From IMG/VR virus record IMGVR_UViG_3300025732_000016: DNA of 64,000 bases, one strand, 5' to 3'. Below are positions 7,820 through 55,190 of this stretch, one piece after another. This stretch comes from a virus. Its lineage: Duplodnaviria; Caudoviricetes. Position numbers and translations under genes: made by a program. Below the pieces are notes generated by a model. The model saw only the letters and a program-made list of their open reading frames with translations. It did not search any database and was not told the origin of the DNA. The first letter of the stretch is position 1, and each line of letters starts with the position of its first letter.

Positions 7820-8286
7820 TAGAATGTCTCCGTCATGTCGTATGACTCGATCTTGAACTTATTCGAGCCCTCAAAAGTGAGAGTCTTTCCCTTCACTTTA
7901 CCATCCTCTGACTGCCTCGTCAAGACTATTCTCTCACCCCATCTCTGGTTTGAGTAGATGAAGTGAGCTTGTTCCCAAGTAGCTATGTCACACTCATAGC
8001 TTGCAAGAACATTAGAGAGCTCTGTGGGGATCATAAGCGAGATGTCTTTGACAGTGATTATCGACGATGATTTTTCTTTCGTAGTGATCTCAGACTTGCA
8101 AAAGTCAATGACAGAATGGATCACTCCGCAATTCGTACACTCAGCGTCCTTTGGTATTACGTTACCACCATCGTCCAACACCGAGAACACTACGAACGAG
8201 TGATACACAGGATTGGGCAACCTCCTTAAAGTAGGGAGGACGCAATGGCACTGCACGAGATGCTTGATCCCTTCCATTCTGCTCAC
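7819..8286 (-). CDS. Hypothetical protein with putative Zn-binding motifs
   Basis: HLVQCHC, CTNCGVIH and FCKS; operonic overlap. Confidence 0.6.
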   Translation of the reverse strand: MSRMEGIKHLVQCHCVLPTLRRLPNPVYHSFVVFSVLDDGGNVIPKDAECTNCGVIHSVIDFCKSEITTKEKSSSIITVKDISLMIPTELSNVLASYECDIATWEQAHFIYSNQRWGERIVLTRQSEDGKVKGKTLTFEGSNKFKIESYDMTETF

Positions 8287-8504
8287 TTACGAAAAAATTT
8301 CTGAACCTGTCCCCAAAGCGACGGGTAAGCGTTGTTCGCAGACTGCTCAATGCTTAGCTGCACAGCTGCAACAATCTTCTGCGTCACTCTATCATCGATC
8401 CCTTCTTGACGACAAATCGTGATAATGTTGTTAGAAGTCGTGTCCTTCACTGCACCGAAAACATTGAAGTACTGTCTTCCAAAATCAGCTTCATTCATGT
8501 ACAC
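8283..8504 (-). CDS. Hypothetical protein
   Basis: ATGA overlap with the next gene; RBS GAGG. Confidence 0.5.
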   Translation of the reverse strand: MYMNEADFGRQYFNVFGAVKDTTSNNIITICRQEGIDDRVTQKIVAAVQLSIEQSANNAYPSLWGQVQKFFRK

Positions 8505-8543
8505 CTCATGTTGTATCGAATCATCAAGAGCGATAGTGTAAAC

Positions 8544-8999
8544 TTACCTTGCACTCTTATCAGCCAGTGTTGAAGATACCCAAGAGTTAGGCTTCACCTG
8601 GCACTTGAAGCCGTAGGCTCCCACCATTGCAGTGAGCTCTTTTACGTACTTCGAAGACTTGTGGACGGCAGTGTTGAGATCGAGGTGAACCTCTGGGTCC
8701 CTTCCAAACTCATCTCGAATTTCGCTTGCAACTGTGAGAGATCTAACAGCCTCCTCAGTAAGCCGCTGGTGTAGGTGGCGAAAATCAGACTTTTGCGCCT
8801 GGTCCCTGACGTAGAAGAACCTGCCTCCCTTGCCCGGGTAGTACACTGCAATCACTGTCGCAAACACCCACTGTCCACCGAGCATGTGTGAGTCTGATCC
8901 AACGAAGATCTGGACTTCCTTGTCACGAATGAGAGACTCGAGCTCTTCTGTTTTTGCCGTCTCTCCGCTTGGCCACTTCCACTTTCTTGTCGATAACAA
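8544..8999 (-). CDS. RNase H-like YkuK-family protein
   Basis: IFVGSDS, EAVRSL, EVHLD and WVSSTLADK resemble the YkuK family. Confidence 0.7.
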   Translation of the reverse strand: MLSTRKWKWPSGETAKTEELESLIRDKEVQIFVGSDSHMLGGQWVFATVIAVYYPGKGGRFFYVRDQAQKSDFRHLHQRLTEEAVRSLTVASEIRDEFGRDPEVHLDLNTAVHKSSKYVKELTAMVGAYGFKCQVKPNSWVSSTLADKSAR

Positions 9000-10242
9000 G
9001 GGCGCCTCCCGTATTTCTAACTAGCTGTCTGAACGCTTCATACGTTGAGAGGGCAATTTTGTAAGAGTCACCTGGGTACGCCCTACACCCAATCATCGTG
9101 ATTCCCTTTCTCCTTGACACGAGGAAGCATCTCATGCCATGGTCAAATCTTTCTTTCACTATCTCTCTTGTATCGCCGAACTCTTCACCGATGCAGACAG
9201 AAACTCTCCTCGAAGAGATTCTCGAGATGCGATTCTGCAACATTCGCAAGATATCAGGATCGCTGAACTGTGAGATCTCACCCCGCAGCTTTCTCAATAA
9301 CTCATCTCGCCCAGCAGTATCTCTCAAGTGAACCTTGAGCTTACCGTTCTCTACGACAACATCGTGACAGTTAGAGTCGTCCTCGTGGGAGATGAGGTTG
9401 ACAGTCTCCTGCCCAATGACCGTGCTCAAGTCTGAGATCGTAAATTCGTCCTCGACCGAGGTTCCGGGAGTGAGGGGCACGATGTCAAAAACTCCCCTCT
9501 GGTTGTTGGCGAAGATCGTGCTGGCCACCTCTGAAGAGAACGCTCTCGCAACGAGCAGGACTCGAGAATTGTCAAGTGAACACTTCTCGAGGAATGTGTT
9601 CACTTGACCGACGCTCTCGATGACCCCGTCAAAAACGACTATTTGTCTGGAAGTTAGGGATCGAGAGGTGTGAAAGCTCGGAGAGACTATCACTGGATAG
9701 GACGATGACTCGTCAACAGAGATGTGTGTAATGCCTCCGACTGAGACTGAGACATTCCCTGTGGCTCCCGCCTGCCCGATGCTGTCGAGTAACAGGCTTC
9801 TCACCGTCTCGTCTTGGACATCGTCGATGAGAGCCGGGAGGTCGCTCTCCAACATCGTCCTTGTACCCGATGCCACCAGTTTTTCGCCTGATAGAAGACG
9901 CAAGAAGAGGTATGAAGAGGCGGGTGAAGCCTGCTCAGCCCTGTACGCCGACAACAGGACCAATGAGCGAGCGATTCTTTCAATGTCACTCTTGGACTTC
10001 CAAGACGACAGGACCCTGAGAGAGTCTGCGGGTGACCCTCCCAGTGCCCTGTCCTTGAAGACCTCGACTATCGAAGAACCGATAGTCTCGATAGTCCCTT
10101 GAGCTATCTTCCTCGCCGCGGCAAGGACAGACTCACCGTCACCAGTGAGTCGTCTAGCTGTCTCTCCAGAGGTTGTTGGCGGCAAAGGTGATAATCTCCT
10201 CAGCAGATTCTGGTGTGTAGCCGTAGTCTTGTACAAGCGCAT
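8923..10242 (-). CDS. Divergent GroEL/Cpn60-like protein (start uncertain)
   Basis: IVVFDGVIESVGQVNTFLE...VLLVARAFSSEVASTIFANNQRGVFDIVPLTPG aligns by eye with the GroEL apical domain; GDGTT motif absent. Confidence 0.6.
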   Translation of the reverse strand: MRLYKTTATHQNLLRRLSPLPPTTSGETARRLTGDGESVLAAARKIAQGTIETIGSSIVEVFKDRALGGSPADSLRVLSSWKSKSDIERIARSLVLLSAYRAEQASPASSYLFLRLLSGEKLVASGTRTMLESDLPALIDDVQDETVRSLLLDSIGQAGATGNVSVSVGGITHISVDESSSYPVIVSPSFHTSRSLTSRQIVVFDGVIESVGQVNTFLEKCSLDNSRVLLVARAFSSEVASTIFANNQRGVFDIVPLTPGTSVEDEFTISDLSTVIGQETVNLISHEDDSNCHDVVVENGKLKVHLRDTAGRDELLRKLRGEISQFSDPDILRMLQNRISRISSRRVSVCIGEEFGDTREIVKERFDHGMRCFLVSRRKGITMIGCRAYPGDSYKIALSTYEAFRQLVRNTGGALVIDKKVEVAKRRDGKNRRARVSHS

Positions 10243-12079
10243 TGACCATTTCTGAGTACTTCTTCTGCTGCTCGTTGTCTCTGCTCTTTGACTTCGTGAC
10301 AATTCGCGCCATGTCCTTCACTGAGGAGATGAGGTAGCCCTCGATCGCCTCACGGAGGGGCTCGTAGGAGCGGTAGTCGACCTTCGTTCCGCGCCGAATC
10401 TTCGCGAACATGTAGGCCGTCACGTCAGCTCGGAACCCGTCCTTCATCGAGCCCGTGATCCCGATCTGCTCCTCGAGAGCCTTCATGAACTTCTCGTCAG
10501 GCTCTCTCTCCTCGGAGGTGACCCTGTCCTTCATCTTCTGTCGAGTCGTGAAGGCCTCTGCGTTGTCGAGGTAGTTGTCGAAGAGAGACTGGGCCTGCTC
10601 CTCGTAGGCGGTGACGAACGCCTTTGCGATCTCTCCCTCGAGGATCTTCAGGTACTCCTCACGGATGACCTTCTGGAGGATCTCGAGATAGTTCTTCTTC
10701 TTCTCCTCGTCGACAACCTGCTCCTTCACCTGCTTGATGAGAGCTTCGACGACTCTCATCGGAGTGATGAAACCCTTGTCAGAGTCGGTGAGTGCAGAGT
10801 CAATTGCCTTCGTGATGAATCGGGTAGAGATTCCCTCCATACCCTCGTGCTTTGCCTCATCACGGAGGTCAGTGATGTCGACCTTGCGCGTCCTGCCCTT
10901 CTCGACAATCTCCTGGCCGTCGTAGATCTTCATCTTGGTGAGGAGGTCACACTTCTGGGAAGGCTTGAGGCGGCTCATCACCGAGAACATTGCCGCGACC
11001 TTGATCGTATGGGGAGCGAGGTGATACTTGAAGTCGGACTTGCGAAGCATCTTCTCGTAGATCTTCATCTCCTGCGTGAGCTCCAGGACGTATGGAACCT
11101 CGATCTTCACGACGCGATCGAGGATGGCCTCGTTCGTGTGCTCAGACTTGAAGCGATTCCACTCTGCCTCGTTGCAGTGTGAGAGGATGACACCGTCGAA
11201 GTAGAGCATCGAGTTCTTGCCCGGTGTCGGAACATTCTTCTCCTGGGTCGCAGTGAGGATCGTGTGGAGGAACTCGATCTCGTTCTTGAAGATCTCGACA
11301 AATTCCACCACACCGCGGTTACCGACGTTGAATGCACCGTTGAGGTTCAGGACTCGGGGATCGTCCTCGGAGAACTTGTCCAGCTTTGAGATGTCCTCTG
11401 AGCCGATGAGGGCCGAAACGTCCTGAGAGTTGGCATCCATGGGAGGGACGACCGCGATACCCCTGCGCGCTCTCTGCGAGAAGGATGAGCGGACCACAGG
11501 GAACTTCTCGTACTCGCCCTTGAACTCTTCCATGAGCCTGTATCGACAGACCGGACAGAGGTCTCCCTCGATGTGGACACCGAGGATCTTCTCGAACTCC
11601 TCCCTCAATGACCTCGGAAGGAGGTGAAGCGGCTCCTCGCGAACTGGGCAGCCATCGAGATGGTAGACGGGCTCTGCAGCCTTCTCAAGAGCCTTCTTCA
11701 CCGCGTCGGCAAGTGCGCTCTTTCCTGATCCGACAGGTCCCATGAGAAGCAGGACCTGCCTGCTTTCCTCACCCTTCAGGGCAGCGGACTTCAGGAATCG
11801 CATGAGCTTTGCAATGACGCGCTCATGGCCGTAGAATTCGTCCCTGAAGTAGCTGTAGGTCTTTAGCTTGTCGCTGCCGAACAGCTTTCGGCAGCGAGGA
11901 TCAGTCTCATCCATTGTGCTCACACCGTATGACTCTACGGCGTCAACGAGTCTCCTCGCGGCGAGCTTTGTCACGTCAGGATCTTCCTTGACGAGCTTCA
12001 GGTAGTCGATGAAACTACCCTTCCAAGAGTCCTTCTGCGACTCAACCCTTTGCTTCTTAATGATGTCGAGAAAATCCAC
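10154..12079 (-). CDS. prkA: PrkA/YeaG-family AAA+ protein
   Basis: Walker A GPVGSGKS; GCPVREEPL, GNRGVVEFVEIFK and EAILDR motifs; GTG start after GGAGG. Confidence 0.9.
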   Translation of the reverse strand: MDFLDIIKKQRVESQKDSWKGSFIDYLKLVKEDPDVTKLAARRLVDAVESYGVSTMDETDPRCRKLFGSDKLKTYSYFRDEFYGHERVIAKLMRFLKSAALKGEESRQVLLLMGPVGSGKSALADAVKKALEKAAEPVYHLDGCPVREEPLHLLPRSLREEFEKILGVHIEGDLCPVCRYRLMEEFKGEYEKFPVVRSSFSQRARRGIAVVPPMDANSQDVSALIGSEDISKLDKFSEDDPRVLNLNGAFNVGNRGVVEFVEIFKNEIEFLHTILTATQEKNVPTPGKNSMLYFDGVILSHCNEAEWNRFKSEHTNEAILDRVVKIEVPYVLELTQEMKIYEKMLRKSDFKYHLAPHTIKVAAMFSVMSRLKPSQKCDLLTKMKIYDGQEIVEKGRTRKVDITDLRDEAKHEGMEGISTRFITKAIDSALTDSDKGFITPMRVVEALIKQVKEQVVDEEKKKNYLEILQKVIREEYLKILEGEIAKAFVTAYEEQAQSLFDNYLDNAEAFTTRQKMKDRVTSEEREPDEKFMKALEEQIGITGSMKDGFRADVTAYMFAKIRRGTKVDYRSYEPLREAIEGYLISSVKDMARIVTKSKSRDNEQQKKYSEMVNALVQDYGYTPESAEEIITFAANNLWRDS

Positions 12080-12087
12080 GTTCCCTC

Positions 12088-13413
12088 CTACGAGATCTCA
12101 AATTCTTCATTTTCTACGTCAGTGAACAGCTTGACGGGACCGTGCCAGATGTTCCTGATGAGCTTGACGCAGTTGTCTGCGTAATCGAGCTCGAGGTCCC
12201 TTCCGTCATGTTCATGCCGCAGTTCTAATGTATTGTCCTTTGCCACGTGATCGACGTATATCGTCGGAATCATATTGCCGGCAATGCTCTGCAGGAGGGC
12301 GGCCCTCACCTCCTGCCAGCTTTCGTCGTCTTCGACAATGTCGTCAACTGTCCAATCAGGGTTCTTCTTGCCCTTCGGACTGAAGGTGAAGAGGTTGAGC
12401 TCTCTCGCCTTCTCCTCGGTGAGGTACTGCATGATGAAGTTCTCGTCGTTGCAGACCTCTCTCGCAAGGAAGCACTCCTCTATGCCGAATCTCTTCTCGA
12501 TGTCCTTGAAGATTTCAAAACCGAGGTGGTATGGGTTGATCTTGAGACCCCACGGTCGAAGGACAGCGTTGTGAGTCTTGAGGAAAGGGAGGTGATGCTC
12601 ATCAGCGAGCTCAAGGTCATGGAGAATTCTGTAGTGCCAGAAGCTCGCCCACCCCTCATTCATAACCTTTGTCCTGATCTGCGGCCAGAAGTAGAGAGAC
12701 TCGTCATGGACTATCGAGATGATGTCCCGCTGCCAATCTGTGAGCTTGTGATTGTTGTCAAGGACAAACTGGAGGATGTCATACTCAGGCTCAAGCGGGA
12801 GGTCATCGATATTGAAGTCCTTCCACTCTCCCTTCTCGTCGTTCTTGATGAGGTCGATGTACTTCTTACGAAGCTCTCTCTCGGACGGTCTCGTCCTGCC
12901 GCGACGATCGGTCTGGTAAGTGAATGCGTGGCAGGCATCGATGATCTTCTCCACGGCCTCAATCCCTATCGTCGGGTCCTCGATGTAGGCCTTAATCCGC
13001 TTTCCGGCATTCCTGAACCTCATCGTGACGGTCGCGGCGTCAGTGTCCTTGAACGTCCGATTGTTCTTGAAGAAGTCCGAGTGGCCGACGCAGTGCGCCA
13101 TGATGAGAATCTGGAGGTACAGCGGGTTCTCCAGCATCAGGTATGCGATTGACGGATCAGAGTTGATGATGAGCTCATACGGAAGGCCCTCAGCGCCCGC
13201 GTTGTACATGAAGTGCGTCCTCTCGAACGTCTTTCCGTACGACCAGTGTGCATAGTGAGAGGGCATCCCGTGGTAAGCCATGTGACCGATCATCTCACGG
13301 TAGTCACAGGTCTCATAGGCTATCGGGTACCAGTCGAGGCCGTGCTTTCTCGCGATCTCGCAGATCTTCTCGTCCCATTCCTCGAGATCACTCAAGTTGT
13401 AGTCACCCATCAC
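12088..13413 (-). CDS. spoVR: SpoVR/YcgB-family protein
   Basis: GMPSHYAHWSYGK, YELIINSDP, AHCVGHSDFFKNN and KVMNEGWASFWH motifs. Confidence 0.9.
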   Translation of the reverse strand: MMGDYNLSDLEEWDEKICEIARKHGLDWYPIAYETCDYREMIGHMAYHGMPSHYAHWSYGKTFERTHFMYNAGAEGLPYELIINSDPSIAYLMLENPLYLQILIMAHCVGHSDFFKNNRTFKDTDAATVTMRFRNAGKRIKAYIEDPTIGIEAVEKIIDACHAFTYQTDRRGRTRPSERELRKKYIDLIKNDEKGEWKDFNIDDLPLEPEYDILQFVLDNNHKLTDWQRDIISIVHDESLYFWPQIRTKVMNEGWASFWHYRILHDLELADEHHLPFLKTHNAVLRPWGLKINPYHLGFEIFKDIEKRFGIEECFLAREVCNDENFIMQYLTEEKARELNLFTFSPKGKKNPDWTVDDIVEDDESWQEVRAALLQSIAGNMIPTIYVDHVAKDNTLELRHEHDGRDLELDYADNCVKLIRNIWHGPVKLFTDVENEEFEIS

Positions 13414-14585
13414 TCACTCCCAAAGAACTTGCTAAAGACAGGCCAAACGTCATCCTTACTCACCAGCGTGGCAGTGCGAAGAACTGGCGAGAGAGCCTTG
13501 AGATTGTTCATGAGCTTCGAGGCAGAGTCACTCTGCCAAGCGGGAGTCGAGCCCTTCGGCTTGATCTCACAGTAGCCGACCATCTGGCTGATGTCACAGA
13601 GATCCCTGTACATGTCGAAGGCCTTCGCGTTGTCTTCTTCGAAGTTGTCGCCGTCCGTGCAGTGGAACACATAGACGTTCCAAGCCGAAGGATGGTACCG
13701 CTCGTTCGCAATCTCAATCGCGAGCTCAGGAGCCGAGGAGACGTGCGTGCCACCGGATGATCCCCTCTTGAAGAAGGAGTCCTCATCAGTCTCGAAAGCC
13801 TCAGTCGTGTGACCGATGAAGACAATCTCGACCTTCTCGTACTTGTGGCGGATGAACTGGTAGAGGAGGAAGTAGAAGGACCTTGCGATGAACTTGATGT
13901 CCTGGGTCATCGAGCCGGAGACGTCCATCATGAAGAAGATGACGGCGTTTGTCGCCTCCTTCGGTTTCGCCTTGATGTGGTGGTACCGGAGGTCGTTGTC
14001 GTGGAATGGGAAGACCTCATTGCCGTCCTCATCCACCTCCACCTCTCCGGCCCTTCGTGCTGCCGCGAGGCGCTTTATCCGCTGGATGGCAGACTCTCTC
14101 TTGTCGAGCCGCGGTGGAATGCCCTGGGGGCGTGTGCCATGTCGCTTTGGCCTCTCCTCGAGAACTGTTCGCAGCTTCTTCCTCTCTAGCTCTGGGAGAT
14201 TCAACGAGGAGAAGAGGTACTCTGCGAGCTCTTCGAGGGTAATCTCGACCTCGTAGAACTCCTCTCCCTTGTCCTTACCAGCCTTGCTGCCGGAGCCCTG
14301 CCCCTGCTGTTGACCCTTCCTTACGACCTGCCCCTTTTGGATGTCGGCGTTAGGAGCAGAGCCCACCTGCTTCTGACCCTCGTTGTCGCCATAGACGAAC
14401 TGCCACTCCTTGATGCCACGAACAGGAATGCGGATCTTCTTCTTCCCATCCTGCCCAATGATCGACTCTTCAGAGACGATATCTGTGATGCCGTCTTTGA
14501 TCGCTTTCTCAATCTTTTGCTTGTGACGAGAACGGTCCGCTGCGGAGCGGTCTGCTGAAGTCTTGTGTTCACGGAAGATAGACAT
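13410..14585 (-). CDS. yeaH: YeaH/YhbH (DUF444) vWA-like protein
   Basis: DRSRH, IRIPVRGIKE, MIDAS-like MDVSGSM, SGGTHVSS and TDGDN motifs. Confidence 0.9.
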   Translation of the reverse strand: MSIFREHKTSADRSAADRSRHKQKIEKAIKDGITDIVSEESIIGQDGKKKIRIPVRGIKEWQFVYGDNEGQKQVGSAPNADIQKGQVVRKGQQQGQGSGSKAGKDKGEEFYEVEITLEELAEYLFSSLNLPELERKKLRTVLEERPKRHGTRPQGIPPRLDKRESAIQRIKRLAAARRAGEVEVDEDGNEVFPFHDNDLRYHHIKAKPKEATNAVIFFMMDVSGSMTQDIKFIARSFYFLLYQFIRHKYEKVEIVFIGHTTEAFETDEDSFFKRGSSGGTHVSSAPELAIEIANERYHPSAWNVYVFHCTDGDNFEEDNAKAFDMYRDLCDISQMVGYCEIKPKGSTPAWQSDSASKLMNNLKALSPVLRTATLVSKDDVWPVFSKFFGSE

Positions 14586-19261: not shown

Positions 19262-20056
19262 TCAGCGCTTCCTCTCACCGTCACGAAGCGCTTCACAAGC
19301 CTGCCAGAAGATCTCCTCGTCCCTCTCCACGCAGACCCACTTTCGACCGAGGTTCCTTGCCGCCCAAGCTGTCGTCATGGAGCCGGCAAAGGGATCGAAG
19401 ACCCAGTCGCCGGGATTGGTGTTCGTCTCGATCGGTATCTCCATCACTCTCAGCGGCTTCTGTGTCGGGTGGACCTTCCCCTGCATGATCTCGGTGACGT
19501 CCATCCAGACGTTGGTCCGCCGGTAGAACTCTGACTTGCAAACGTAAGTCTTCTTACCTGGTTTCGGGGTATATCCCGGGTACCCCCGTTTCTCTGAGAG
19601 TAACGGAATGTTGAAGGTAATAGGTTTCCTTATGTCACCCTTCACGAGGTACAGGAGGTCTTCCCGTGTTTGGAGATAGTTGTGCTTCACTCCGTAGGCC
19701 CTCTTCTTGGACCAAGTGATGATGTTGGACATCCGCCAAGGGGTCTCGGACTCGAGGCGTGAGACATACTCGAAGAGTGGTCGGAAACCGGGTTTGCCGT
19801 ACCCACCCCACACGTACATTGCGCCACCGTCGACAACCAGCTCGCTGAAGCGGTTTGACCAACTGATCATCCAGTCCGCGAATGACTTCTGGTCCCCGTC
19901 CCACTTGTCCCAGTCCTCGCTGACAAGGTTCCCGTAGGGCGGGTCTGTCGCAACGAGCTTCAGGGGTCCACAGGTTCTCCTGACAAAGTCGACCACCTCA
20001 TCCGAGGCGCAGTCACCCTGAATGGCGTACCCGTCAGGAAATTCGTGTACTAGCAT
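19262..20056 (-). CDS. DNA N6-adenine/N4-cytosine methyltransferase (beta class)
   Basis: DPPY precedes HPTQKP and DPFAGS. Confidence 0.85.
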   Translation of the reverse strand: MLVHEFPDGYAIQGDCASDEVVDFVRRTCGPLKLVATDPPYGNLVSEDWDKWDGDQKSFADWMISWSNRFSELVVDGGAMYVWGGYGKPGFRPLFEYVSRLESETPWRMSNIITWSKKRAYGVKHNYLQTREDLLYLVKGDIRKPITFNIPLLSEKRGYPGYTPKPGKKTYVCKSEFYRRTNVWMDVTEIMQGKVHPTQKPLRVMEIPIETNTNPGDWVFDPFAGSMTTAWAARNLGRKWVCVERDEEIFWQACEALRDGERKR

Positions 20057-22965: not shown

Positions 22966-24855
22966 TCAACGCAGAGTGTAATCGCTGCAGAACTTTCTCT
23001 CATGAGAAGTAAGATTATGTTCACTGCGGATTGGAAGAGAGTCTGCAGACTCCATGAGAGTCTTTGAGACTCTTGAAGCAGATTCATCGTTGTTGTCCCA
23101 TACGTCCTCGAAGAGTCTATCGACTACCTTGCGACGCGAGTTGAGAAAGTGCTCAACTAATTCACGGTTAGGTGAAACCTTTAAGCTCACCCCGATTCTC
23201 TCTTCAGTCTGAGCTCTCGATAGGGTTAGGGCCATAACTGCAAGTTCAGCCCCGATGTCGACCAACCTACCGAGTATGAGCTGTCGCATCTCAAGCTTTG
23301 GTCCTCTCAGAAGCATCTGGTGAAACAAAGTTAGGGCGAGCTTTCTTGTTTTTGATTCTATCCAGTTGAGGTGTGCAACAAAAGAGTCATCGAACTCAAG
23401 AAATTTATCTGTTATTGGACCGAACAAGTTTCCGATGTACCACTTCGGATAGATGAGCGCGCACTTTCCGACCACCTTGAGCTTGTCCCAAAGAGTGGCT
23501 CCCTTCTTGAAAAGACCACCGGCATTCTTCAGGTGACCGTCAAGGGCCTCGCGGGCAATGAAGAGGTGCATGATGTCCGTGGTCCCTTCGACAATACGGT
23601 TGATTCGAGTGTCACGAAGTGCTCTCTCTATCGGAAATCCGACCTCGCCTCTTCCCTCAACCGACTTTTCTGTTTCAAATCCGCGACCACCTCTCAACTG
23701 GAGAGCGGTGTCAACCACCTCCCAACTCCTCTCGCTGTTCCACATCTTGGCGGTGGCAGCTTCCATACGGATGTCCACATCATGCTTGTCACTGAGGGCT
23801 GCGCCGTAAAGTGCTAGCGTCTCCATCGCATACGTGAGCCCTGCAATGTCTGCCAACTTCTGCGCACCTGCCTCGTGTTCACCCACCGCCTTACCCCACT
23901 GAGTCCGACTCTTGGCCCATGAGGCAGAGAAGTCTCGGATGTCCTTGGAGACGAAGGCTGCCACAGCGGGAATTCCCAGACGACCGTCATTGAGAGTGGT
24001 GAGAGCCAGCTTGAGACCCTTGCCCTCACCGAGGATGACATTGTCACCGGGAACCTTGACATTCCTGAAACGGATGAGACCGTTCTCGATGGCACGGATA
24101 CCGAGGAAACGACAGCGGTGAACGACCTCCAAGCCCTCTGAGCGTCCCTCGACCACGAATGCCGTGATTCCCTTCCTTCCATCCTCCGAGGTGGTGCGCG
24201 CCATGACGACGTAGAGGTCTGCAAGGGTTCCGTTGGTACACCAGAGCTTCTCACCATTGAGGACCCATGAACCATCAGGCTGCTTCACGGCCTCAGTAAC
24301 CATGCTGGCTGGATCAGATCCAGCACCGGGCTCAGTGAGAGCGAATGCCGATAGCTCACCCTTGGCGATTCGAGGAAGCCACTTCTGCTTCTGTTCCTCG
24401 GTGCCAAAGAGCTTCAGTGGCTGTGGAACGCCGATGGACTGGTGTGCTGAAAGCGTCGCTGCGGTGGAACCGCAGTACTTTGCTACTGTGCCAAGTATCC
24501 GCACGTAGTTTGTCTGCGACATTCCAAGGCCACCGTACTTCTTGTCAATCTTGATGCCAAAGAGACCGAGATCTGCGAGTCCGCGCCACACATGTGGAGG
24601 AATCTCCTGGTTCTTGTCAATGAGGTCTCCGTCAAGATTGCCTTGTGCCCATGCTTCAAACTTCTCGATCACTGAGTCTCCCTCCTTCCTGTCCTCCTCA
24701 CTCTGCAGTGGGAACGGGAAAGCAAGGCCCATATCAAGTTCACCCATGAACATGGATCCCATGAATGACTTGGACTTCCAGTCGAGCTCACGGCTCTCTT
24801 CTGCGACCTGGATCGACTTTGCCTCTTCCTGTGTGCGATTCTTGTTCTCTATCAT
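22966..24855 (-). CDS. Acyl-CoA dehydrogenase family protein
   Basis: FALTEPGAGSD, LNGEKLWCTNG, TTLNDGRL, GGRGF and RIVEGTTDI motifs. Confidence 0.9.
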   Translation of the reverse strand: MIENKNRTQEEAKSIQVAEESRELDWKSKSFMGSMFMGELDMGLAFPFPLQSEEDRKEGDSVIEKFEAWAQGNLDGDLIDKNQEIPPHVWRGLADLGLFGIKIDKKYGGLGMSQTNYVRILGTVAKYCGSTAATLSAHQSIGVPQPLKLFGTEEQKQKWLPRIAKGELSAFALTEPGAGSDPASMVTEAVKQPDGSWVLNGEKLWCTNGTLADLYVVMARTTSEDGRKGITAFVVEGRSEGLEVVHRCRFLGIRAIENGLIRFRNVKVPGDNVILGEGKGLKLALTTLNDGRLGIPAVAAFVSKDIRDFSASWAKSRTQWGKAVGEHEAGAQKLADIAGLTYAMETLALYGAALSDKHDVDIRMEAATAKMWNSERSWEVVDTALQLRGGRGFETEKSVEGRGEVGFPIERALRDTRINRIVEGTTDIMHLFIAREALDGHLKNAGGLFKKGATLWDKLKVVGKCALIYPKWYIGNLFGPITDKFLEFDDSFVAHLNWIESKTRKLALTLFHQMLLRGPKLEMRQLILGRLVDIGAELAVMALTLSRAQTEERIGVSLKVSPNRELVEHFLNSRRKVVDRLFEDVWDNNDESASRVSKTLMESADSLPIRSEHNLTSHERKFCSDYTLR

Positions 24856-24902
24856 GTGACTCCTCAATGAAAGGATAACAAAGAATCAACGATGTATCAA
24901 AG

Positions 24903-27258: not shown

Positions 27259-27858
27259 CTAACTATTCGGCCTCACGCCACTTCGCAGGACAATCTCGCA
27301 GATGTGGTCGAGCCTCTCGATGTGCTCGTACGCCGACCATGGGTCACCCGCCACCGAGCACACCCCGTGGTTCGCCTGACCCACGACATCGAAGGCGAGC
27401 TTCCCGTTCCCGTCCAACATCGCGGAGGCAGTCGCACGTGCCAACTCAGGTGATGTGGCAGGCAGGACCGGGACTGTCGGGCCCACCCTCGTGTACCGGC
27501 TCACCTCAGGGAACTCACTTGCGATCCTCTGCAGGTCCCAGCCTGCGTAGACAGCAGCGACAATGTGGGTCGGATGGACATGGACGACTGCACGGGTGGA
27601 GCTGTTACCCAGCTGGAGGAGACGGTGCATCTCCAGTTCACCGGATGGGCTTGAGTCCTTCGGCACGTCAAGCGTCCCGTCGAAGCCGAACCTCACCTTG
27701 ACGACGTGTTCAGGATGGATGATGGTCTTACGCCAGCCGGAGGGTGTGATGTAGAGTGTCTGAGAACCTCTCTTTCGCAGCGAGATGTTACCGTCCCTCG
27801 TAGTTATCCATCCCTTGTCGTAGCATCTCCTCATCACATCACCGATAGCAGTGAGCAT
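27259..27858 (-). CDS. Class II aldolase/adducin-family protein
   Basis: RDGNIS, ITPSG, PSGELEMH, VVHVHP and NHG motifs. Confidence 0.85.
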   Translation of the reverse strand: MLTAIGDVMRRCYDKGWITTRDGNISLRKRGSQTLYITPSGWRKTIIHPEHVVKVRFGFDGTLDVPKDSSPSGELEMHRLLQLGNSSTRAVVHVHPTHIVAAVYAGWDLQRIASEFPEVSRYTRVGPTVPVLPATSPELARATASAMLDGNGKLAFDVVGQANHGVCSVAGDPWSAYEHIERLDHICEIVLRSGVRPNS

Positions 27859-44356: not shown

Positions 44357-45026
44357 TCCTTGTTTCATCAAATCCGGTGAGATTGTCACAATAGACGACC
44401 CACGTTTAAGTGACACTGATTGCGTGATAGAGGCGGGCGTCATCATTCGTCCGCCCGCAGACGAGACAACAGTCAAGGAAGTCGAGAAACATGTTGAGGA
44501 GAAGACAGAGGTCAAGGAGATAAAGCACACTGTCAAGAAGAGGGTGGAACTACCCTTAGAACCAGAGCCTCCTCCCGCTGTAGTTGAGACTCCTCCAGTC
44601 AAGACTGTTGTTACAAATCCGACAACAGTCTCTACAGCAGCAACAGCGGTTCCTGCCCCTGCTCCAAAGGAAGAAATTTACTTTGGGATGTCACCTGAAA
44701 TGGCGACTGTTGCAGCAGTTGGCACAATCGCTGCAGTGGGTGGTGCGGTCGCAGCTTCAACGATGGGAGGTTTCAGTGCTGTTCAAGCAAAGCTCGCTTC
44801 GATCTTTGGTTCAAAAGCTGCTGCAACTGCTACAGCGGCGGTCGCAGTGACGGCGGGAACCATCGCCGCCGTGAAGGCCCTCGAGGGAAAGGTGGGCAAG
44901 TTCGAGGAGGACATGAAGAAGGCGAAGGAGGAGGTCGGTGGTGCAGCCTCTTCAATCGACCGGATCGATGCCCTACTGAGCCGGCTTGGCGGCGACAACG
45001 ACGACGAACTCGACCCTTCGGTTTAG
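44349..45026 (+). CDS. Membrane protein with Pro/Thr-rich linker and Ala-rich TM hairpin
   Basis: ATG 44349 overlaps the upstream gene; two Ala/Gly-rich hydrophobic segments. Confidence 0.55.
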   Translation: MADPCFIKSGEIVTIDDPRLSDTDCVIEAGVIIRPPADETTVKEVEKHVEEKTEVKEIKHTVKKRVELPLEPEPPPAVVETPPVKTVVTNPTTVSTAATAVPAPAPKEEIYFGMSPEMATVAAVGTIAAVGGAVAASTMGGFSAVQAKLASIFGSKAAATATAAVAVTAGTIAAVKALEGKVGKFEEDMKKAKEEVGGAASSIDRIDALLSRLGGDNDDELDPSV

Positions 45027-48000
45027 GGCCTGCCCCTCGGGAGTCCCGGAGGTGTCGAGCGGTGCCGTGTCTCCCTTACCCTCGATGGAGATGCGCCCCG
45101 CATCGACACCCTTGCCGATGAGGTAGTCAGCAGCGACCTTCGCTCTTTCCCGTGAGAGTTCCTCAGGGTGCTTGAACTCCATTTCCGAGGAGTCCGCGTA
45201 TCCGACGACCTTCACGCCGTATCCCGGTCGAAGATTAAGGACCGTCCAGACACCGTCGAGTGTCGCCCGGGCCTTAGTGTTGAGCTTCGTGTCGCCTGGA
45301 AGGAAACCGATTCCGACCTCCTGCTTCGGAGGTAAGGTGACATCAGGCTTCGCCGGGACTACTATCACGATGGGCTGGAGCGGTTCTTCCTGAACCTTAC
45401 ACTCACATGCGGTCTGGGGCGAAACTTCGGGAGTAGCGTCTTCCTCTTCCTCATCTGAGGGACCGAAAGTAATCTGCATTGTTGCCTGCCAATCTCCATC
45501 GCCAGGTTGACGAATGACACCCTTGCTCAGTGCACCGCCAATCGAGAAGTTGCCGACAGTCCACTCCAGTGAAGACCCTATGAAGAGAGATGAGACAGGC
45601 GACTCTCCAAGGTTGTGAAACGCCTGCGAGTCTACTCCAATCGTGAAGTCGCCGACTGAATAAGATCCTGCCGCCGTGATGTAGGGCCCGGATCCAAGCT
45701 CGTATCCTTCGAGATCGACCTTCGGGTAGACCATGAAACCAGCCCCGAGGAGCCCCCCGACGTTACCGAACTGGGCCTCGGCTCCTGCTTCGAGTGTCGT
45801 TGCCCACCCAGGATGTGAGACACCGAGTCCTACTCCGGTGGGAGCAACCAACGACACATCGCCGTAGGCTCCCAGGCCATCGACACTGAAGGCTTTCGAG
45901 TTCACGCGGAGACCGCCCCAGACATCACCGAGGCGAACTACTCCATCGTTAGCGATGGATGCTGGCACGCCGAAGTCGACAGAGAAGTGCTCGAAAGTGT
46001 AACGATTGGTCGTCCAGCCCCAGTAGACGTCATCGATGACCACGACCTCGTCACCCTGCGGGTTGATGTAGGAGAGGGGATCGGTGACCACACCACCGAC
46101 GATGGCAGTCTCATCTCCGAGGAACCTCGACTCACCCCTCGGTGGGAGGGGCACCACACTCATCTCGGGGACCTCACCCCCAGAAGCTCCCATCAGGAGC
46201 GGGAATCCGAGGAGGAAAGAGAAGAGGCCCCTCCGCCTTGAGGCGAGCACCGCGCCGAGGGTCATGAGAATGAGGCTTCCGCTTCCACCGCCGCCGGTCG
46301 TGGAGCAACCGCCGCCCGGGACATATGACCCCTTCGGAGCGGGATTCTCGTCCGTGTCATCGACCGGTGGGGCGCCAGTCTCGTCGGCACTATCAACGGC
46401 TGAATCGGAACCGGTATCGATCGAGGTATCGTGGCCACTGTCGCCCGTGTCGATCACCACACCGCTGTCACCAGAATCTCCTGTATCGATTGGCCTGTCA
46501 TCGACAGGATCACATGCATCACCGACTCCGTCTCCATCAACGTCGGACTGGTCATTGGAGAGACCTGGACAGTTGTCGGTCACATCGTCAGCCCCGTCTC
46601 CGTCGGCGTCTGGATCGCAGATATCACCAAGACCGTCTCCGTCGATGTCTGCTTGGTCGGAGTTGAAGGCATCCGAGCAGTTGTCAGATAGACCGCAGAG
46701 CCCGTCCTCATCAGCGTCGTTTGTCGCATCATCCGGACAGGCATCGACATCACCACAGATTCCGTCGGCATCGATGTCGTTGTCAGCATCGAACTCGCAT
46801 GGATCGGTGTCGGCACATGCTCCGTCACCATCGACATCGTCGCTTGGATCGAGCGGGCAGACGTCCAGTGATTCACAGGCTCCGTCGCCGTCCCGATCAT
46901 CGAGGGAGTCATTGGGGCAGATGTCCTCGTCACCGCAGGTCCCGTCACCGTCGATGTCGTTCAGCTCATCGAGCGGGCAGGTGTCACAGTCATCTGAGAG
47001 GCCGTCCTCGTCCGAATCTACCGTGTCATCAGCGCCCGGGCAGATATCTGCAGAATCGCAGGATCCGTCACCGTCGGAATCATCGGCTGAGTCCGCCGGG
47101 CAGGCATCGCAACCATTCGGGATGCCATCACTGTCAGTATCGAGTGTGTCATCAGCGCCCGGGCAGATATCGTCGGAGTCGCATGAACCATCCGCATCAC
47201 TGTCACCGAGTGCATCGAATGGGCAGGTGTCGCAACCGTCGGGGGTGTAGTCACCATCAGTGTCGATGCGGTCATCTGAGCCGGGGCAGATGTCGTTCTC
47301 AGCACAGACGCCATCGGAATCGGAGTCATTGTCTGCGTCATACTTGCAGGCATCGCAACCATTCGGGATGCCATCTGAGTCGGAATCCACCAGGTCACTG
47401 TAGCCCTCGCAGACATCCACATCTCCGCAGACTCCGTCACCGTCAGCGTCATCGTATGGGTCTGACGGGCAAGAGTCGCAGCCATCTGGCGTGTAATCAG
47501 CGTCCGCATCAGCGAGGTCATCGTATCCTTCGCAGGCATCAACATCACCGCAGACACCGTCGGCATCTGCGTCGTCATACGGATCGGATGGGCAGGAATC
47601 GGAGGAGTCTGGGATTCCGTCGCCGTCCGCATCCGGTTCAACAGGGGCTTCGGCGCAGTCCGTTGCAGCGGAGACCGCAGTCTCGTCAAGGGTGTAGATG
47701 ACCCTGAATGTCTCGGACTGCCCAGGAGCCATATCACCGAGGCTCACCGCAAGCGAGATCGCCGCATCATCGGAGACCGAAGATCCCACTGTGGAGTAGA
47801 ATCCTGAGCCGTTCCAGATGTCCGAGGCATCGGTGTTGAAGAACCCACCATGGGTGACCCTTGCACGACTGTCGGAGGCGATGAGGTAGAGATCCGCGCC
47901 ATCTCCCCCGGTCGCCCTAACTGAGGCAAGATCGGTGGATGAGTCAGGTTGCGAGATGATGGTGTTCGTGGTCGAGTAGTCGTATGTCGTCATCACAGAG

Positions 48001-48554
48001 TTGTCAGGATCGACGTTCCTGAACCAGTAGACGTCCGACAGGGTCGATGAGCCGTTGTTGGTGAGGGTGACAGTCATCACGACGTAGACCTCGTCATTGA
48101 CGACACCGTACTGGGTCTCTACCCCGAGGTCTCCCACCGCGCCGGTCCATGTCACCGCACCGCCGAGGTTTCCGCAGATATCGACCTCACATGCGGGGTC
48201 TCCGAGGGAGCCTGCGATGCCATTCGTCCAGCCGTTTGTGTTGTCGTATGCGACCCCGTTGAACTCAACGCCCCAGCCCTCGAGAGGAGAGCCGGGTGAG
48301 AAGAAGTCACCGTAGTAGCTCGACCAGCCGTTCCGCTGCGGGTTCGCCACGAAACCGAGTTGGCCTGTGTTCGACCGGTAGTGCCATCCAGAAGGGTAAC
48401 CGCCCTCTCCGAAAGCGCCCTCGGAGCCGATGCCGAACTCAACGTATTCGTTACGAATAAAAGCTGATGAACCAGGATCATTGACTTCACAAAAACCTGA
48501 TGCCTGGGCCAGCGTTGGCGTGAGGAACAAAAGTGATAGAAGTATTTTACGCAT
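44973..48554 (-). CDS. Large surface protein: signal peptide + globular domain + TSP3-like Cys/Asp repeats + internal MYXO-CTERM-like motif + beta-barrel-like region + OmpA C-terminal domain
   Basis: Many DxDxDGxxDxxDxCP repeats; GGGCSTTGGGGSGSLILMTLGAVLASRRR; OmpA motifs VVGYADS, LSRERAKVA and NRRVEF. Confidence 0.8.
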   Translation of the reverse strand: MRKILLSLLFLTPTLAQASGFCEVNDPGSSAFIRNEYVEFGIGSEGAFGEGGYPSGWHYRSNTGQLGFVANPQRNGWSSYYGDFFSPGSPLEGWGVEFNGVAYDNTNGWTNGIAGSLGDPACEVDICGNLGGAVTWTGAVGDLGVETQYGVVNDEVYVVMTVTLTNNGSSTLSDVYWFRNVDPDNSVMTTYDYSTTNTIISQPDSSTDLASVRATGGDGADLYLIASDSRARVTHGGFFNTDASDIWNGSGFYSTVGSSVSDDAAISLAVSLGDMAPGQSETFRVIYTLDETAVSAATDCAEAPVEPDADGDGIPDSSDSCPSDPYDDADADGVCGDVDACEGYDDLADADADYTPDGCDSCPSDPYDDADGDGVCGDVDVCEGYSDLVDSDSDGIPNGCDACKYDADNDSDSDGVCAENDICPGSDDRIDTDGDYTPDGCDTCPFDALGDSDADGSCDSDDICPGADDTLDTDSDGIPNGCDACPADSADDSDGDGSCDSADICPGADDTVDSDEDGLSDDCDTCPLDELNDIDGDGTCGDEDICPNDSLDDRDGDGACESLDVCPLDPSDDVDGDGACADTDPCEFDADNDIDADGICGDVDACPDDATNDADEDGLCGLSDNCSDAFNSDQADIDGDGLGDICDPDADGDGADDVTDNCPGLSNDQSDVDGDGVGDACDPVDDRPIDTGDSGDSGVVIDTGDSGHDTSIDTGSDSAVDSADETGAPPVDDTDENPAPKGSYVPGGGCSTTGGGGSGSLILMTLGAVLASRRRGLFSFLLGFPLLMGASGGEVPEMSVVPLPPRGESRFLGDETAIVGGVVTDPLSYINPQGDEVVVIDDVYWGWTTNRYTFEHFSVDFGVPASIANDGVVRLGDVWGGLRVNSKAFSVDGLGAYGDVSLVAPTGVGLGVSHPGWATTLEAGAEAQFGNVGGLLGAGFMVYPKVDLEGYELGSGPYITAAGSYSVGDFTIGVDSQAFHNLGESPVSSLFIGSSLEWTVGNFSIGGALSKGVIRQPGDGDWQATMQITFGPSDEEEEDATPEVSPQTACECKVQEEPLQPIVIVVPAKPDVTLPPKQEVGIGFLPGDTKLNTKARATLDGVWTVLNLRPGYGVKVVGYADSSEMEFKHPEELSRERAKVAADYLIGKGVDAGRISIEGKGDTAPLDTSGTPEGQALNRRVEFVVVVAAKPAQ

Positions 48555-48600
48555 ACCTCTATCTATGTTATTCGCGCGTAGAGACTGACGAAAATTCAGA

Positions 48601-48891
48601 TTAAGAGCTGACGGCCTCGACAAAGCGAGAGTCTACCAGAAGACGACCTGCCTCTGACATGCACCAGTAGTACACTCGATTCTCTATCTTGTTCTCAGTG
48701 AGGGTCACCGCGGGCGACTCGACTCTCTCTACGACGAGAGCATTGATGTTTGCGACAATCTTCTTCTTACCCTTCAACTTGAGAGTTCCCTCCCTGGTGT
48801 TCTCTACGCTTGACCAGCCGTAGGGAGGTTCAATGCCTTCACAGTCCCAGGGCACGATGCGCACAATGTCACCATTCTCAAACTTACTCAC
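48601..48891 (-). CDS. Hypothetical SH3-like protein
   Basis: FENGDIVRI; GTGA/ATGA coupling. Confidence 0.55.
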   Translation of the reverse strand: MSKFENGDIVRIVPWDCEGIEPPYGWSSVENTREGTLKLKGKKKIVANINALVVERVESPAVTLTENKIENRVYYWCMSEAGRLLVDSRFVEAVSS

Positions 48892-51298: not shown

Positions 51299-51560
51299 CT
51301 ACTGCGATCTCCCTGCCGTCCTGGAAGACGATCCAGCACTTCGATATCCATTTCTCAGTGTACTTCATCGAATCAGACTTTACAAGCAGGAGCACGTGCG
51401 AGCCGACCTCGATCTCGATTCTCTCCCACACGGGAGATCCGAGAAAGGGCGGATCCTGCTGCCAGATGTGGGCGACCACGTGAGTACCAGGAAGGGCGCG
51501 ACCATCGTAGAGGTGATCACGACACACGACCACGGCGAGATCGCCCGGCCGCAGCTCACC
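51240..51560 (-). CDS. Hypothetical SH3-like protein (start uncertain)
   Basis: LRPGDLAVV...CWIVFQDG. Confidence 0.4.
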   Translation of the reverse strand, partial: GELRPGDLAVVVCRDHLYDGRALPGTHVVAHIWQQDPPFLGSPVWERIEIEVGSHVLLLVKSDSMKYTEKWISKCWIVFQDGREIAVDEKNLDHVGSPRGSTASVE

Positions 51561-51981
51561 ACTCTTCGCCGAGTCCAACCCAGTCCCTGTACTTTTCCTC
51601 ACCACCGCGGGTCTTCCAGTCAGAGTCGATGGTAAGCTTTGAGCTGATGCCGCCGCGTGGGTTGAAGACCATGACGATACGTAGGCGATTGGGCTCGTAT
51701 ACCGCCATGAGGTCATCGTAGATGACATTCGCGAGGCGCTCGTATGAGATGATCTTGTTCCTGAACTGGTGGAGGTAGAACTTGAAGGACTTGAGCTCCA
51801 CGACTTTCTCGTGTGGATAGATCGTCACGAAGAGGTCGGCAAAGTCTGGCTGGTCCTTCACTCCGATGAAGGTCACCTCGGGTGACTTGATCTTGATCTC
51901 GTAGTCCCGGTCAGTCGGATTGGGAATCGACTTCAGGATCGTCGGGTCGCTCCACACTTTCATACGTTCTCCACTACTCAT
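51556..51981 (-). CDS. queF: QueF-like T-fold protein lacking the catalytic Cys
   Basis: QPDF, VELKSFKFYL, SYE and FNPRGGI; no Cys in the 141-aa sequence. Confidence 0.75.
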   Translation of the reverse strand: MSSGERMKVWSDPTILKSIPNPTDRDYEIKIKSPEVTFIGVKDQPDFADLFVTIYPHEKVVELKSFKFYLHQFRNKIISYERLANVIYDDLMAVYEPNRLRIVMVFNPRGGISSKLTIDSDWKTRGGEEKYRDWVGLGEEW

Positions 51982-52228
51982 GACTTTCTGATTTCACGGA
52001 AGAGTGTATACTCGCCAAGATTCGCGCCTCCTCTTCATCGACGAAGTATGCCACGGGCGCCCTCACGATGCTTCCGAAAGGGGCCAAGAAATCACCGAAA
52101 GACCTCTCCCAGGCGTCTTCAAATCCTCCCAGGTAGACCCATGTCTCACCCTCGACAATTCTCCAGTCACAGGTCTCATCTTCCCATGTTCGACGACTGA
52201 CGAGGTCACCCTCTTTGAATCTATTCAT
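51974..52228 (-). CDS. Hypothetical SH3-like protein
   Basis: FKEGDLVSRR. Confidence 0.5.
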   Translation of the reverse strand: MNRFKEGDLVSRRTWEDETCDWRIVEGETWVYLGGFEDAWERSFGDFLAPFGSIVRAPVAYFVDEEEARILASIHSSVKSESHE

Positions 52229-52652: not shown

Positions 52653-53450
52653 CTAGGGAGTAGCAGCGTAGTGTTCAACGAGATCGTTGATTCTCTCCAA
52701 TGACTTGTTGAAGTAGTAGGTGTCCTTCTCGCTGCCGACGAAGCGCCTTTCATTCTTCAGAGCCGCAATCGCGGTGGAGCCAGAACCAGAGAATGGGTCG
52801 AGGATCACGTCTCCAGGTTGGGTGTGAGCCAGGACCATCCTCTCCAGGAGAGCCACAGGCTTCTGGGTCGGGTGCCAGCCACAGTACTCTCGACTCGTGG
52901 TGTGGTTGTTCTGCTGCCAGACGTCTGTGGGCACCTTTCCGCGAGCGAAGTCCTCACCTGTGCGAAAGTTCTTCGTCACCTTTCGGGGCACCTCCACGTT
53001 CTCGGGGTACCATCGAACATCGGGACCCTTCGAGTACATGAGACAGTCCTCATGCTTACGGGGCCATGTCTTCTTGGTGCGCCCGCCCCAGTCGTAGGAC
53101 CAGATGAGCCAGTTACGGTACTCGAGCTTCGCTTGGTGGTTCATGACCCCAAGCTTGAAGCGCAGGAAAGTGTCGGTCTTGGTCGTCCCCCAAACATAGA
53201 GGGCACCGCCGGGCTTCAGGACGACCGAGCACTGTCGGACCCAGGCGTCGCACCACGAGAGGTACTCGGTCTCGTCCTTCCACTGGTGATCCCAGTCGTC
53301 CCCCACGATCTCGAAGTAGGGCGGGTCCGCGATGATCACGTCCACGCTCTCCTCGGGAAGGGAGGCGAGGAGCTCCATGCAGTCGACATTCCGGAGGTCC
53401 AGGTTTGGGGAAGGTTTAGGATTAGAATCTGGGTTATTCACGGGGATCAC
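52653..53450 (-). CDS. DNA N6-adenine/N4-cytosine methyltransferase (beta class)
   Basis: DPPY, HPTQKP and DPFSGSGST. Confidence 0.9.
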   Translation of the reverse strand: MIPVNNPDSNPKPSPNLDLRNVDCMELLASLPEESVDVIIADPPYFEIVGDDWDHQWKDETEYLSWCDAWVRQCSVVLKPGGALYVWGTTKTDTFLRFKLGVMNHQAKLEYRNWLIWSYDWGGRTKKTWPRKHEDCLMYSKGPDVRWYPENVEVPRKVTKNFRTGEDFARGKVPTDVWQQNNHTTSREYCGWHPTQKPVALLERMVLAHTQPGDVILDPFSGSGSTAIAALKNERRFVGSEKDTYYFNKSLERINDLVEHYAATP

Positions 53451-54455: not shown

Positions 54456-55190
54456 CTAGACTCCGTATCTCGATCTTTGCGCGTTGAAGTTCTGTGTGAC
54501 TTCTGCGGTGGACAGTCCCCTGTCGTAGATTCTCACGACAGGTATCGCACCGTGTGTGAAGTTTGTGCTGACATTGTCGACATCATCCCAGCGTCGGGCT
54601 ATTCTGATTGCGCCACCCGACTGCGGAGTCCCCGAATAGCTCAGCGTGTAGGTCGTTACGACATTGACATAGAGAGTCACAGTGCTGCCATCGTAGGTGC
54701 CTGCGTAGTGAACCCAGTTTCCGAGAACGGGTGTGTGCCCAGTTGCCACGTTCCTCCACGCACCATCGAAGAATCCGGCACGTACTGTCGATGACAGAGG
54801 TGCAGCAGCTCCCAACGCAAAGTTCACTTTGCTGACGCCATCGTATAGATTCGTGATGACTGCGTTGGTGCCTGCTGCAGGATTTCCGTCCCAGCGCATC
54901 CAAGCCTCTATCGTGAAAGTGTTGAGATCACCCAAGTTCGTTGCTGTATCGGCGTACTGATAGCTGCCAGAGTTGAATGTGAGGATGCCGCCATTAGCGC
55001 TTGAGTATGTCGGAGAATTTCTGAGTGTGAAGTTGACCCCCTGACCCGAGATGTCAGTCCAAGTCGTTCCCGTCCCTGGGTAGCTTCTTGAGTCTCCCGC
55101 ATCAAGGTGAACGCGAAGCCCTCTTGTGACAACATACCTCGCCGGTGTGCTTGATATTGGGCCTGAGAACGATGACATCTTTCCAAACAT
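54456..55190 (-). CDS. LamG/concanavalin-like lectin-domain protein
   Basis: GLRVHLDAG..SYPGTGTTWTDISG, FTIEAWMR, WVHYAGTYDG and RIYDRGLS. Confidence 0.85.
   Translation of the reverse strand: MFGKMSSFSGPISSTPARYVVTRGLRVHLDAGDSRSYPGTGTTWTDISGQGVNFTLRNSPTYSSANGGILTFNSGSYQYADTATNLGDLNTFTIEAWMRWDGNPAAGTNAVITNLYDGVSKVNFALGAAAPLSSTVRAGFFDGAWRNVATGHTPVLGNWVHYAGTYDGSTVTLYVNVVTTYTLSYSGTPQSGGAIRIARRWDDVDNVSTNFTHGAIPVVRIYDRGLSTAEVTQNFNAQRSRYGV

Follow-up and report, generated by a model that had tools for sequence, protein, structure and literature searches.

The 64,000-nucleotide (nt) stretch analyzed here (the window), one strand of the Caudoviricetes virus record IMGVR_UViG_3300025732_000016, encodes a QueF homologue that contains no cysteine. 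The gene belongs to an undescribed branch of the QueF family whose members are systematically misannotated. On balance, we think it probable that proteins of this Cys-less branch are flavin-free, NADPH-dependent T-fold enzymes whose substrate has switched from preQ0 to a folate and which most likely convert 5,10-methylene-tetrahydrofolate (methylene-THF) to 5-methyl-THF, the reaction of MetF. A broader proposal, which we regard as evenly balanced, is that they form a third class of methylenetetrahydrofolate reductase (MTHFR), structurally unrelated to the others, that evolved from QueF through loss of the covalent Cys, stands in for MetF in scattered bacteria, and is carried widely by large phages, most of them environmental, as the missing step of a virus-encoded methyl cycle. 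The MTHFR reading is built on adjacency to metH, control by S-adenosylmethionine (SAM) riboswitches, linkage to metK and ahcY, anticorrelation with MetF, the presence of FolA and FolD, and the precedent set by the enzyme Mfr.

A cysteine-less branch of the QueF family

The gene and the sequence elements discussed below have the following window coordinates.

51556..51981, minus strand: coding sequence of the Cys-less QueF-family protein, 141 amino acids (aa) from the first ATG
51841..51882, minus strand: active-site loop PEVTFIGVKDQPDF, the counterpart of PEFTSLCPxTGQPDF in QueF (HMMER alignment and family comparison)
51862-51864, minus strand: codon of Gly40, at the position of the thioimide Cys (HMMER alignment)
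51775..51798, minus strand: ELKSFKFY, residues 62-69, the QueF-specific NADPH-binding motif E(S/L)K(S/A)hK(L/Y)(Y/F/W)
51736..51747, minus strand: SYER, which holds Glu81, the predicted substrate-anchoring Glu
51646..51660, minus strand: PRGGI, a T-fold motif
51580..51630, minus strand: C-terminal family-specific motif IDSDWKTRGGEEKYRDW

A preliminary description of this DNA had reported a QueF homologue without any Cys at 51556-51981 that keeps the Asp of QPDF, ELKS, a Glu in SYE, and PRGGI. The open reading frame (ORF), which lies on the minus strand and has a Cys count of zero, bears this out, as do matches to PF14489 (9.5e-23) and to the TIGR03139 "preQ(1) synthase" model (100.1 bits versus a cut-off of 86.9). 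The stop codon of the upstream ORF (51974-52228) and the first ATG overlap. The true start is likely Met7 (ATG at 51963), giving a protein of 135 aa, because a GGAGA Shine-Dalgarno sequence is found five bases upstream of it, close relatives are 135-136 aa long, and the ESM Atlas entry begins at residue 7.

The closest solved relative of the window protein was Bacillus subtilis QueF (4F8B; HMMER E = 1e-19), and the kept motifs named above are present at the coordinates listed. The B. subtilis active-site loop PEFTSLCPKTGQPDF aligned to PEVTFIGVK-DQPDF, with the thioimide Cys55 replaced by Gly40 and one residue of the CP-x-TG loop deleted before QPDF. Asp62 and Glu97 of the B. subtilis enzyme are kept as Asp46 and Glu81, while His96 and Phe95 are replaced by Tyr80 and Ser79. 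The proteins are otherwise alike in fold, family models, NADPH motif, PRGG, and approximate length. An AlphaFold (AF2) model of the window protein (predicted local distance difference test score [pLDDT] of 82.8; confidence low from about residue 121) superposed on 4F8B with a template modeling (TM) score of 0.75 at 35% identity (Foldseek). The window protein did not match PF02219 (MTHFR), and its predicted fold is a T-fold and not a TIM barrel. The Zn site of GTP cyclohydrolase I (FolE) is built from Cys and His; the window protein has no Cys and did not match PF01227 (FolE).

By chance alone, the absence of Cys from a protein of 141 aa is unremarkable. A search of 5.8 billion proteins returned more than 1100 matches, and motifs were analyzed in the best 120 of these (65-97% identity). 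Gly occupied the catalytic position in all 119 of these homologues that were readable there, within the motif PE.TF(L/E/F)G...QPD(F/Y), and Cys was absent altogether from 107 of the 120. What chance does not account for is the Gly at the catalytic site of every readable homologue. All 38 Cys-less copies (from 29 GTDB genome contigs, 8 viral contigs, and the window) are at least 57% identical to the window protein and carry the Gly motif; relatives less than 50% identical to it in which the motif could be located have CPxTGQPDF. A sequencing error, which the preliminary description had named as a possible source of the missing Cys, would not be repeated in close homologues, and all relatives of 57-97% identity that were read carry the same motif. 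In a quick IQ-TREE run, a long branch with 100% SH-aLRT support parted the Cys-less family from canonical QueF, and the window protein fell within a subclade that is mostly viral. When 1.84 billion cluster representatives were searched with a profile, a few dozen 50%-identity clusters showed the signature TF.G...QPDF plus ELKSLK.Y. The loss of Cys thus marks a conserved sister branch of QueF and not a sequencing error.

Residues conserved in the branch were compared with those of 13 canonical unimodular QueFs. Common to both are the Asp, the NADPH motif, R74, the anchoring Glu, N85, and the Arg-Gly of PRGG. Within the Cys-less family, E62, L63, K67, and Y69 of the NADPH motif are invariant and K64 is nearly so; P-R-G-G of PRGGI is also invariant, its Arg and first Gly being those common to canonical QueF. 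The changes from canonical QueF are Cys to Gly, Pro to Val, His to Tyr, Gly to Met, and Thr to Ser. G40 and S79-Y80-E81-R82 are family-specific invariant residues, and D119, S120, D121, W122, G126, G127, and W134 are invariant in the C-terminal motif, IDSDW..RGG.EKY.DW, most of which has no counterpart in the 13 canonical proteins, whose ends fall near there. Because the NADPH motif, Asp46, Glu81, R74, N85, and the PRGG Arg-Gly are invariant or nearly invariant, and because the family has invariant residues of its own, its sequences look like those of a working enzyme that uses NADPH on a new substrate rather than those of a decayed one. The same kept and family-specific residues support a different T-fold chemistry, one of two options raised at the outset.

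A QueF relative with a changed reaction has a precedent in the archaeosine amidinotransferase QueF-L (Pyrobaculum, 5JYX), a T-fold protein that Foldseek matched at E of about 3e-6 and 15-17% identity. In QueF-L the catalytic Cys is retained and the NADPH motif is missing, whereas the Cys-less family shows the opposite, with the Cys lost and the motif kept.

Association with methionine and SAM genes

In several bacteria, the Cys-less QueF gene adjoins metH. The two genes are divergent, and metH is full length, in two Pleionea species (L029 and L032), in a gammaproteobacterial metagenome-assembled genome (MAG; L023), and in G025 and G040. In a Halanaerobiales MAG (L015), the gene lies 3′ of metH with a 7-nt gap, and the metH is short and has no activation domain. 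In a Bacteroidia MAG (L036), it is flanked by the two parts of a split metH, in the order metH_N, QueF-like gene, metH_C, metF. SAM riboswitches (RF00162; 84 and 77 bits) head the metH and Cys-less QueF operons of L015 and L036, which belong to two phyla; no riboswitch was found at Rfam gathering thresholds upstream in gammaproteobacterial, deltaproteobacterial, or viral loci. In 14 Syntrophorhabdus/deltaproteobacterial loci, thyX is directly upstream of the Cys-less QueF gene. The conserved upstream genes in the deltaproteobacterial loci had first been taken for queC and queD, and Pfam identified them as ThyX and a methyltransferase. Two genes for "23S rRNA intervening sequence protein" (PF05635; L036:9567-9923 and 13196-13564) were also observed within the SAM-riboswitch operon of L036.

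The immediate adjacency to metH, including the short L015 metH without an activation domain, could also indicate a methionine synthase accessory factor, acting for example in the reductive reactivation of cob(II)alamin, or another methyl-cycle role. A downstream gene is needed to reactivate the MetH of Thermotoga, according to work cited in PMC7857596. We consider such a role very improbable. A T-fold protein with no Cys and no recognizable flavin- or metal-binding domain is ill suited to one-electron transfer, full-length MetH with its own activation domain is also found among the neighbors, and an accessory role would leave the anticorrelation with MetF (below) unexplained.

The Cys-less family is common in phages, with 80 loci recovered in one IMG/VR scan, many of them on contigs of 100-330 kb. 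In 82 viral loci, metK directly abuts the Cys-less QueF gene in 12 and ahcY is within the locus in 8, and these linked loci are scattered over several separate clades of the tree; thyX was not found in any of the 82. One 273-kb viral contig (L087) carries metK, the Cys-less QueF gene, a full-length five-domain metH, and ahcY, which, as read from its genes, is a complete activated-methyl cycle except for the enzyme that makes 5-methyl-THF. PF02219 was not found in five viral records of 132-332 kb. The L087 cassette (6968-13256) is notable in itself as a case of a phage-borne B12-dependent methionine synthase. The closest syntenic relatives of the window gene (L001 and L052-L055; 82-84% identity) have metK and ahcY immediately 3′ of the gene. 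Directly downstream of the Cys-less QueF gene, 12 viral loci have a DUF2452 gene (e.g., L092:8366-8794, 142 aa) and another 12 have a Clp protease gene.

The occurrence of MetF was examined in 121 genomes of the gammaproteobacterial order that holds Pleionea, of which 10 carry the Cys-less family; canonical MetF was defined as a PF02219 match of more than 250 bits. None of the 10 carriers had canonical MetF, against 75 of the 111 noncarriers (Fisher p = 3e-5). When only MetH-positive genomes were considered, the values were 0 of 8 and 67 of 78 (p = 1.4e-6), or 2 of 8 versus 67 of 78 (p = 6e-4) with two weak MetF-like matches counted in. Among 24 carriers tested, 15 had no MetF match, 5 anaerobes had a weak MetF-like match alone, and 4 had canonical MetF. 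Pleionea sediminis, an isolate, and a Bacteroidota genome of 6.2 Mb are among the carriers without a MetF match. MetH was present in all five carriers tested, FolA in 8 of 10 (among them all seven tested that lack MetF), and FolD in 4 of 5. Replacement of dihydrofolate reductase (DHFR) was therefore rejected for the MetF-less carriers, as was replacement of FolD. A Bacteroidota-wide sample of 401 genomes contained three carriers, too few for a second statistical test.

Several observations weigh against a MetF-like role. MetH-positive status was assigned by proxy, as a second PF00809 hit besides FolP; the Fisher tests ignore shared ancestry; and MAGs or drafts of unreported completeness account for many of the genomes tested. 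Canonical MetF is kept in Aliikangiella, Pleionea CnH1-48, G195, and L036, in the last case in the same operon as the Cys-less QueF gene. Because four carriers keep canonical MetF, universal replacement of MetF was rejected; the two proteins may differ in role where both occur. No fusion of the Cys-less QueF domain to a folate or methionine enzyme was found among the longer family proteins. The only clear fusion there was P0121 (293 aa, metagenome), which joins a Cys-less QueF-like domain to a Lar restriction-alleviation domain (PF14354); two further oddities were seen. In the Syntrophorhabdus/deltaproteobacterial group, FolA was absent from both genomes tested and a weak MetF-like gene was present, and with thyX as the neighbor, this group fits a DHFR role equally well. 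In the window itself, metK, ahcY, and thyX were absent by tblastn, metH not having been queried, so the link of the window to the methyl cycle rests on its relatives and on nearby DNA methylases. One of these methylases is close to the Cys-less QueF gene, as follows.

52653..53450, minus strand: N6/N4 DNA methyltransferase (PF01555, 5.6e-45), on the same strand as the Cys-less QueF gene

This methyltransferase, a SAM consumer, is encoded two small ORFs upstream of the Cys-less QueF gene in a tightly packed run and has a syntenic counterpart in phage contigs L001, L054, and L055. A second N6/N4 DNA methylase is encoded in the window at 19262-20056 on the minus strand (PF01555, 3.7e-30).

The thyX loci also bear on the possibility that the family is some other NADPH-dependent folate or pterin reductase that supplies reduced folate to ThyX and MetH generally, such as a DHFR, a methenyl-THF reductase (the dehydrogenase step of FolD), or a dihydropterin reductase. 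The kept NADPH-binding and pterin-anchoring residues fit such an enzyme, as do the 14 loci with thyX directly upstream and the two genomes without FolA, and a second MTHFR seems redundant in the L036 operon with its canonical MetF. We nevertheless judge this explanation unlikely, since FolA and FolD are already present in the carriers as described, MetF is the sole gap that tracks the Cys-less QueF gene, and the SAM riboswitch and the metK, ahcY, and metH neighbors are methionine specific and not folate general. The viral loci, with no thyX, likewise argue against it.

A role in 7-deazaguanine metabolism is contradicted by several lines of evidence. The 82 viral and 38 Cys-less loci contained no homologue of folE, queC, queD, queE, or dpdA at distances of up to 8-10 kb from the gene. 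The preliminary description had noted no other que or dpd genes in the window, and this holds at the level of BLAST (FolE, QueC, QueD, QueE, and DpdA of phage phiSM all gave E > 0.1 against the window) and of Pfam scans of 30 other window ORFs, mostly among the largest. The QueF proteins of phages phiSM (Cellulophaga) and VH7D (Vibrio) are phage-borne members of the same family with about 38% local identity to the window protein. In contrast with the window protein, they have the Cys, complement an Escherichia coli queF deletion, and are encoded among folE, queC, queD, queE, and dpdA (Hutinet et al. 2023). QueC was absent from carriers G005, G006, and G217, indicating that no preQ0 is made there, and canonical QueF coexists with the Cys-less family in Pleionea, Aliikangiella, and an Alkaliflexus MAG. 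Compared with canonical QueF, then, the Cys-less family has an extra invariant C-terminal motif and is linked to metH, metK, ahcY, thyX, and SAM riboswitches, with no que linkage.

These data make it very improbable that the family comprises preQ0 reductases, or other enzymes of 7-deazaguanine metabolism, with no need of a covalent thioimide. Such an enzyme would account for the TIGR03139 score above the cut-off, for the kept anchoring Glu and Asp, and for a deltaproteobacterial MAG (G004) that has QueC and whose only PF14489 match is the Cys-less protein. However, canonical QueF is already present in Pleionea, Aliikangiella, and G009, the family occurs in the three genomes without QueC, and its 120 loci lack the gene cluster seen around phiSM queF. 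The mechanism of QueF, moreover, depends on a covalent thioimide with the catalytic Cys (PMC13740343), the structure of which has been solved (4F8B).

The preliminary description had suggested, as its other option, a noncatalytic binder that acts as a sponge for preQ0/preQ1 or as a dominant-negative poison of host QueF and tRNA queuosine, within a framework in which phages use 7-deazaguanines to protect their DNA. A phage-derived copy that has lost the nucleophile and kept its binding residues would match such a protein. A mere binder, however, would not keep invariant NADPH-motif residues. The gene is also chromosomal in bacteria with their own QueF, where it would be self-poisoning, and it is found in SAM-riboswitch metH operons and in genomes without QueC. 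With no que or dpd genes in the 120 loci, we consider the sponge or poison highly improbable, and the DNA-modification framework does not fit the evidence on the Cys-less family.

A candidate flavin-free route to 5-methyl-THF

From the residues and gene contexts described above, we infer the substrate, product, and catalytic roles of the Cys-less family. T-fold enzymes grip purines and pterins through a common 2-amino-4-oxo-pyrimidine edge (PMC13740343). Glu81 would anchor this face, which pterins and 7-deazaguanine have in common, and would place the carbon on pterin N5 where the nitrile or thioimide carbon on C7 of preQ0 sits in QueF. NADPH, held by the kept QueF motif, would then donate a hydride directly to the carbon on N5 in the 5-iminium form of methylene-THF, with Asp46 and/or Tyr80 as general acids. 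The iminium would already be electrophilic, unlike the nitrile that QueF must activate through the Cys adduct, and a Cys adduct would therefore be unnecessary. We speculate that Ser79-Tyr80 and the C-terminal motif give room to, and hold, the larger folate.

Direct hydride transfer of this kind is feasible, since the flavin-independent mycobacterial Mfr transfers hydride from NADH to methylene-THF (PMC11094777). The likeness of the Cys-less family to MetF is one of predicted function alone and consists of the proposed reaction, the metH neighbor, and control by SAM. MetF (PF02219) is an FAD-dependent enzyme with the (beta-alpha)8 fold of a TIM barrel, whereas the Cys-less family has the T-fold. 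In a phage-infected cell, the 5-methyl-THF would feed host or phage MetH, and the methionine and SAM regenerated would be available to DNA methylases and other SAM-using enzymes. The phage enzyme may thus direct host one-carbon units toward methionine and SAM whatever control the host exerts on metF. In the window phage, this supply of SAM would serve the two DNA methylases.

If the MTHFR reading is true, MetF would no longer be the sole route to 5-methyl-THF besides the distant Mfr relatives, and the "missing MTHFR" gap would be filled in MetH-positive, MetF-negative genomes. Many virome "queF" auxiliary genes now counted as queuosine or 7-deazaguanine genes would instead be genes of the one-carbon and SAM cycle, and inferences of phage metabolic reprogramming and DNA-modification potential would change with them. 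The family would also provide a clean case of enzyme evolution, in which the fold, the NADPH geometry, and the base-anchoring residues were reused for a pterin once the nucleophile became dispensable. A systematic annotation error would be flagged as well, because the TIGR03139 equivalog model scores the Cys-less family above its cut-off.

Public sources label the family "7-cyano-7-deazaguanine reductase." PHROGs labels phrog_5949 "GTP cyclohydrolase," which follows an old misnaming of QueF. A QueF review of November 2026 recognizes the YkvM and YqcD subfamilies alone (PMC13740343). The preQ0 reductases with which the window protein is compared here (EC 1.7.1.13) are those of the YkvM subfamily. 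Full-text searches found no literature linking a QueF-family protein to folate or methionine metabolism.

Eleven MetH-positive genomes of the gammaproteobacterial order had neither canonical MetF nor the Cys-less QueF family (G029, G055, G075, G079, G091, G101, G113, G122, G050, G069, and G117). Three of the eleven had subthreshold PF02219 matches in ORFs of 335-350 aa. Further MTHFR substitutes may exist among MetF-less, MetH-positive genomes.

Other genes of the window

The 16 kb around the Cys-less QueF gene had no match among GenBank phages by megablast. Between 24903 and 33841, the window encodes 19 tRNAs and a transfer-messenger RNA (tmRNA; tag ANNTDHFSEALAA), all on the minus strand and with small ORFs interleaved. 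This tRNA array and the tmRNA indicate that the phage from which the window derives is large and brings its own translation set. A class II aldolase (27259-27858, minus strand) is encoded inside the tRNA region, and an acyl-CoA dehydrogenase of 633 aa with three ACAD domains (22966-24867, minus strand) just outside it; both look like metabolic auxiliary genes.

A PIN-PhoH fusion protein of 474 aa is encoded at 5365-6789 on the minus strand; 12 other viral loci have a protein of this architecture near the Cys-less QueF gene (e.g., L091:10683-12023). A PrkA kinase (PF08298/PF06798), a DUF444 (YeaH-like) protein, and SpoVR form a triad at 10154-14585, also on the minus strand. This is a bacterial stress- and sporulation-linked module of the yeaG-yeaH-ycgB type and an unusual auxiliary set for a phage. 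The minus strand at 44973-48623 encodes 1216 aa that comprise thrombospondin type 3 repeats and, at the C terminus, an OmpA domain; a Laminin_G_3 (ConA-like) protein at 54456-55190 was reported as adjoining this protein. These two are probably virion or host-envelope-binding proteins.

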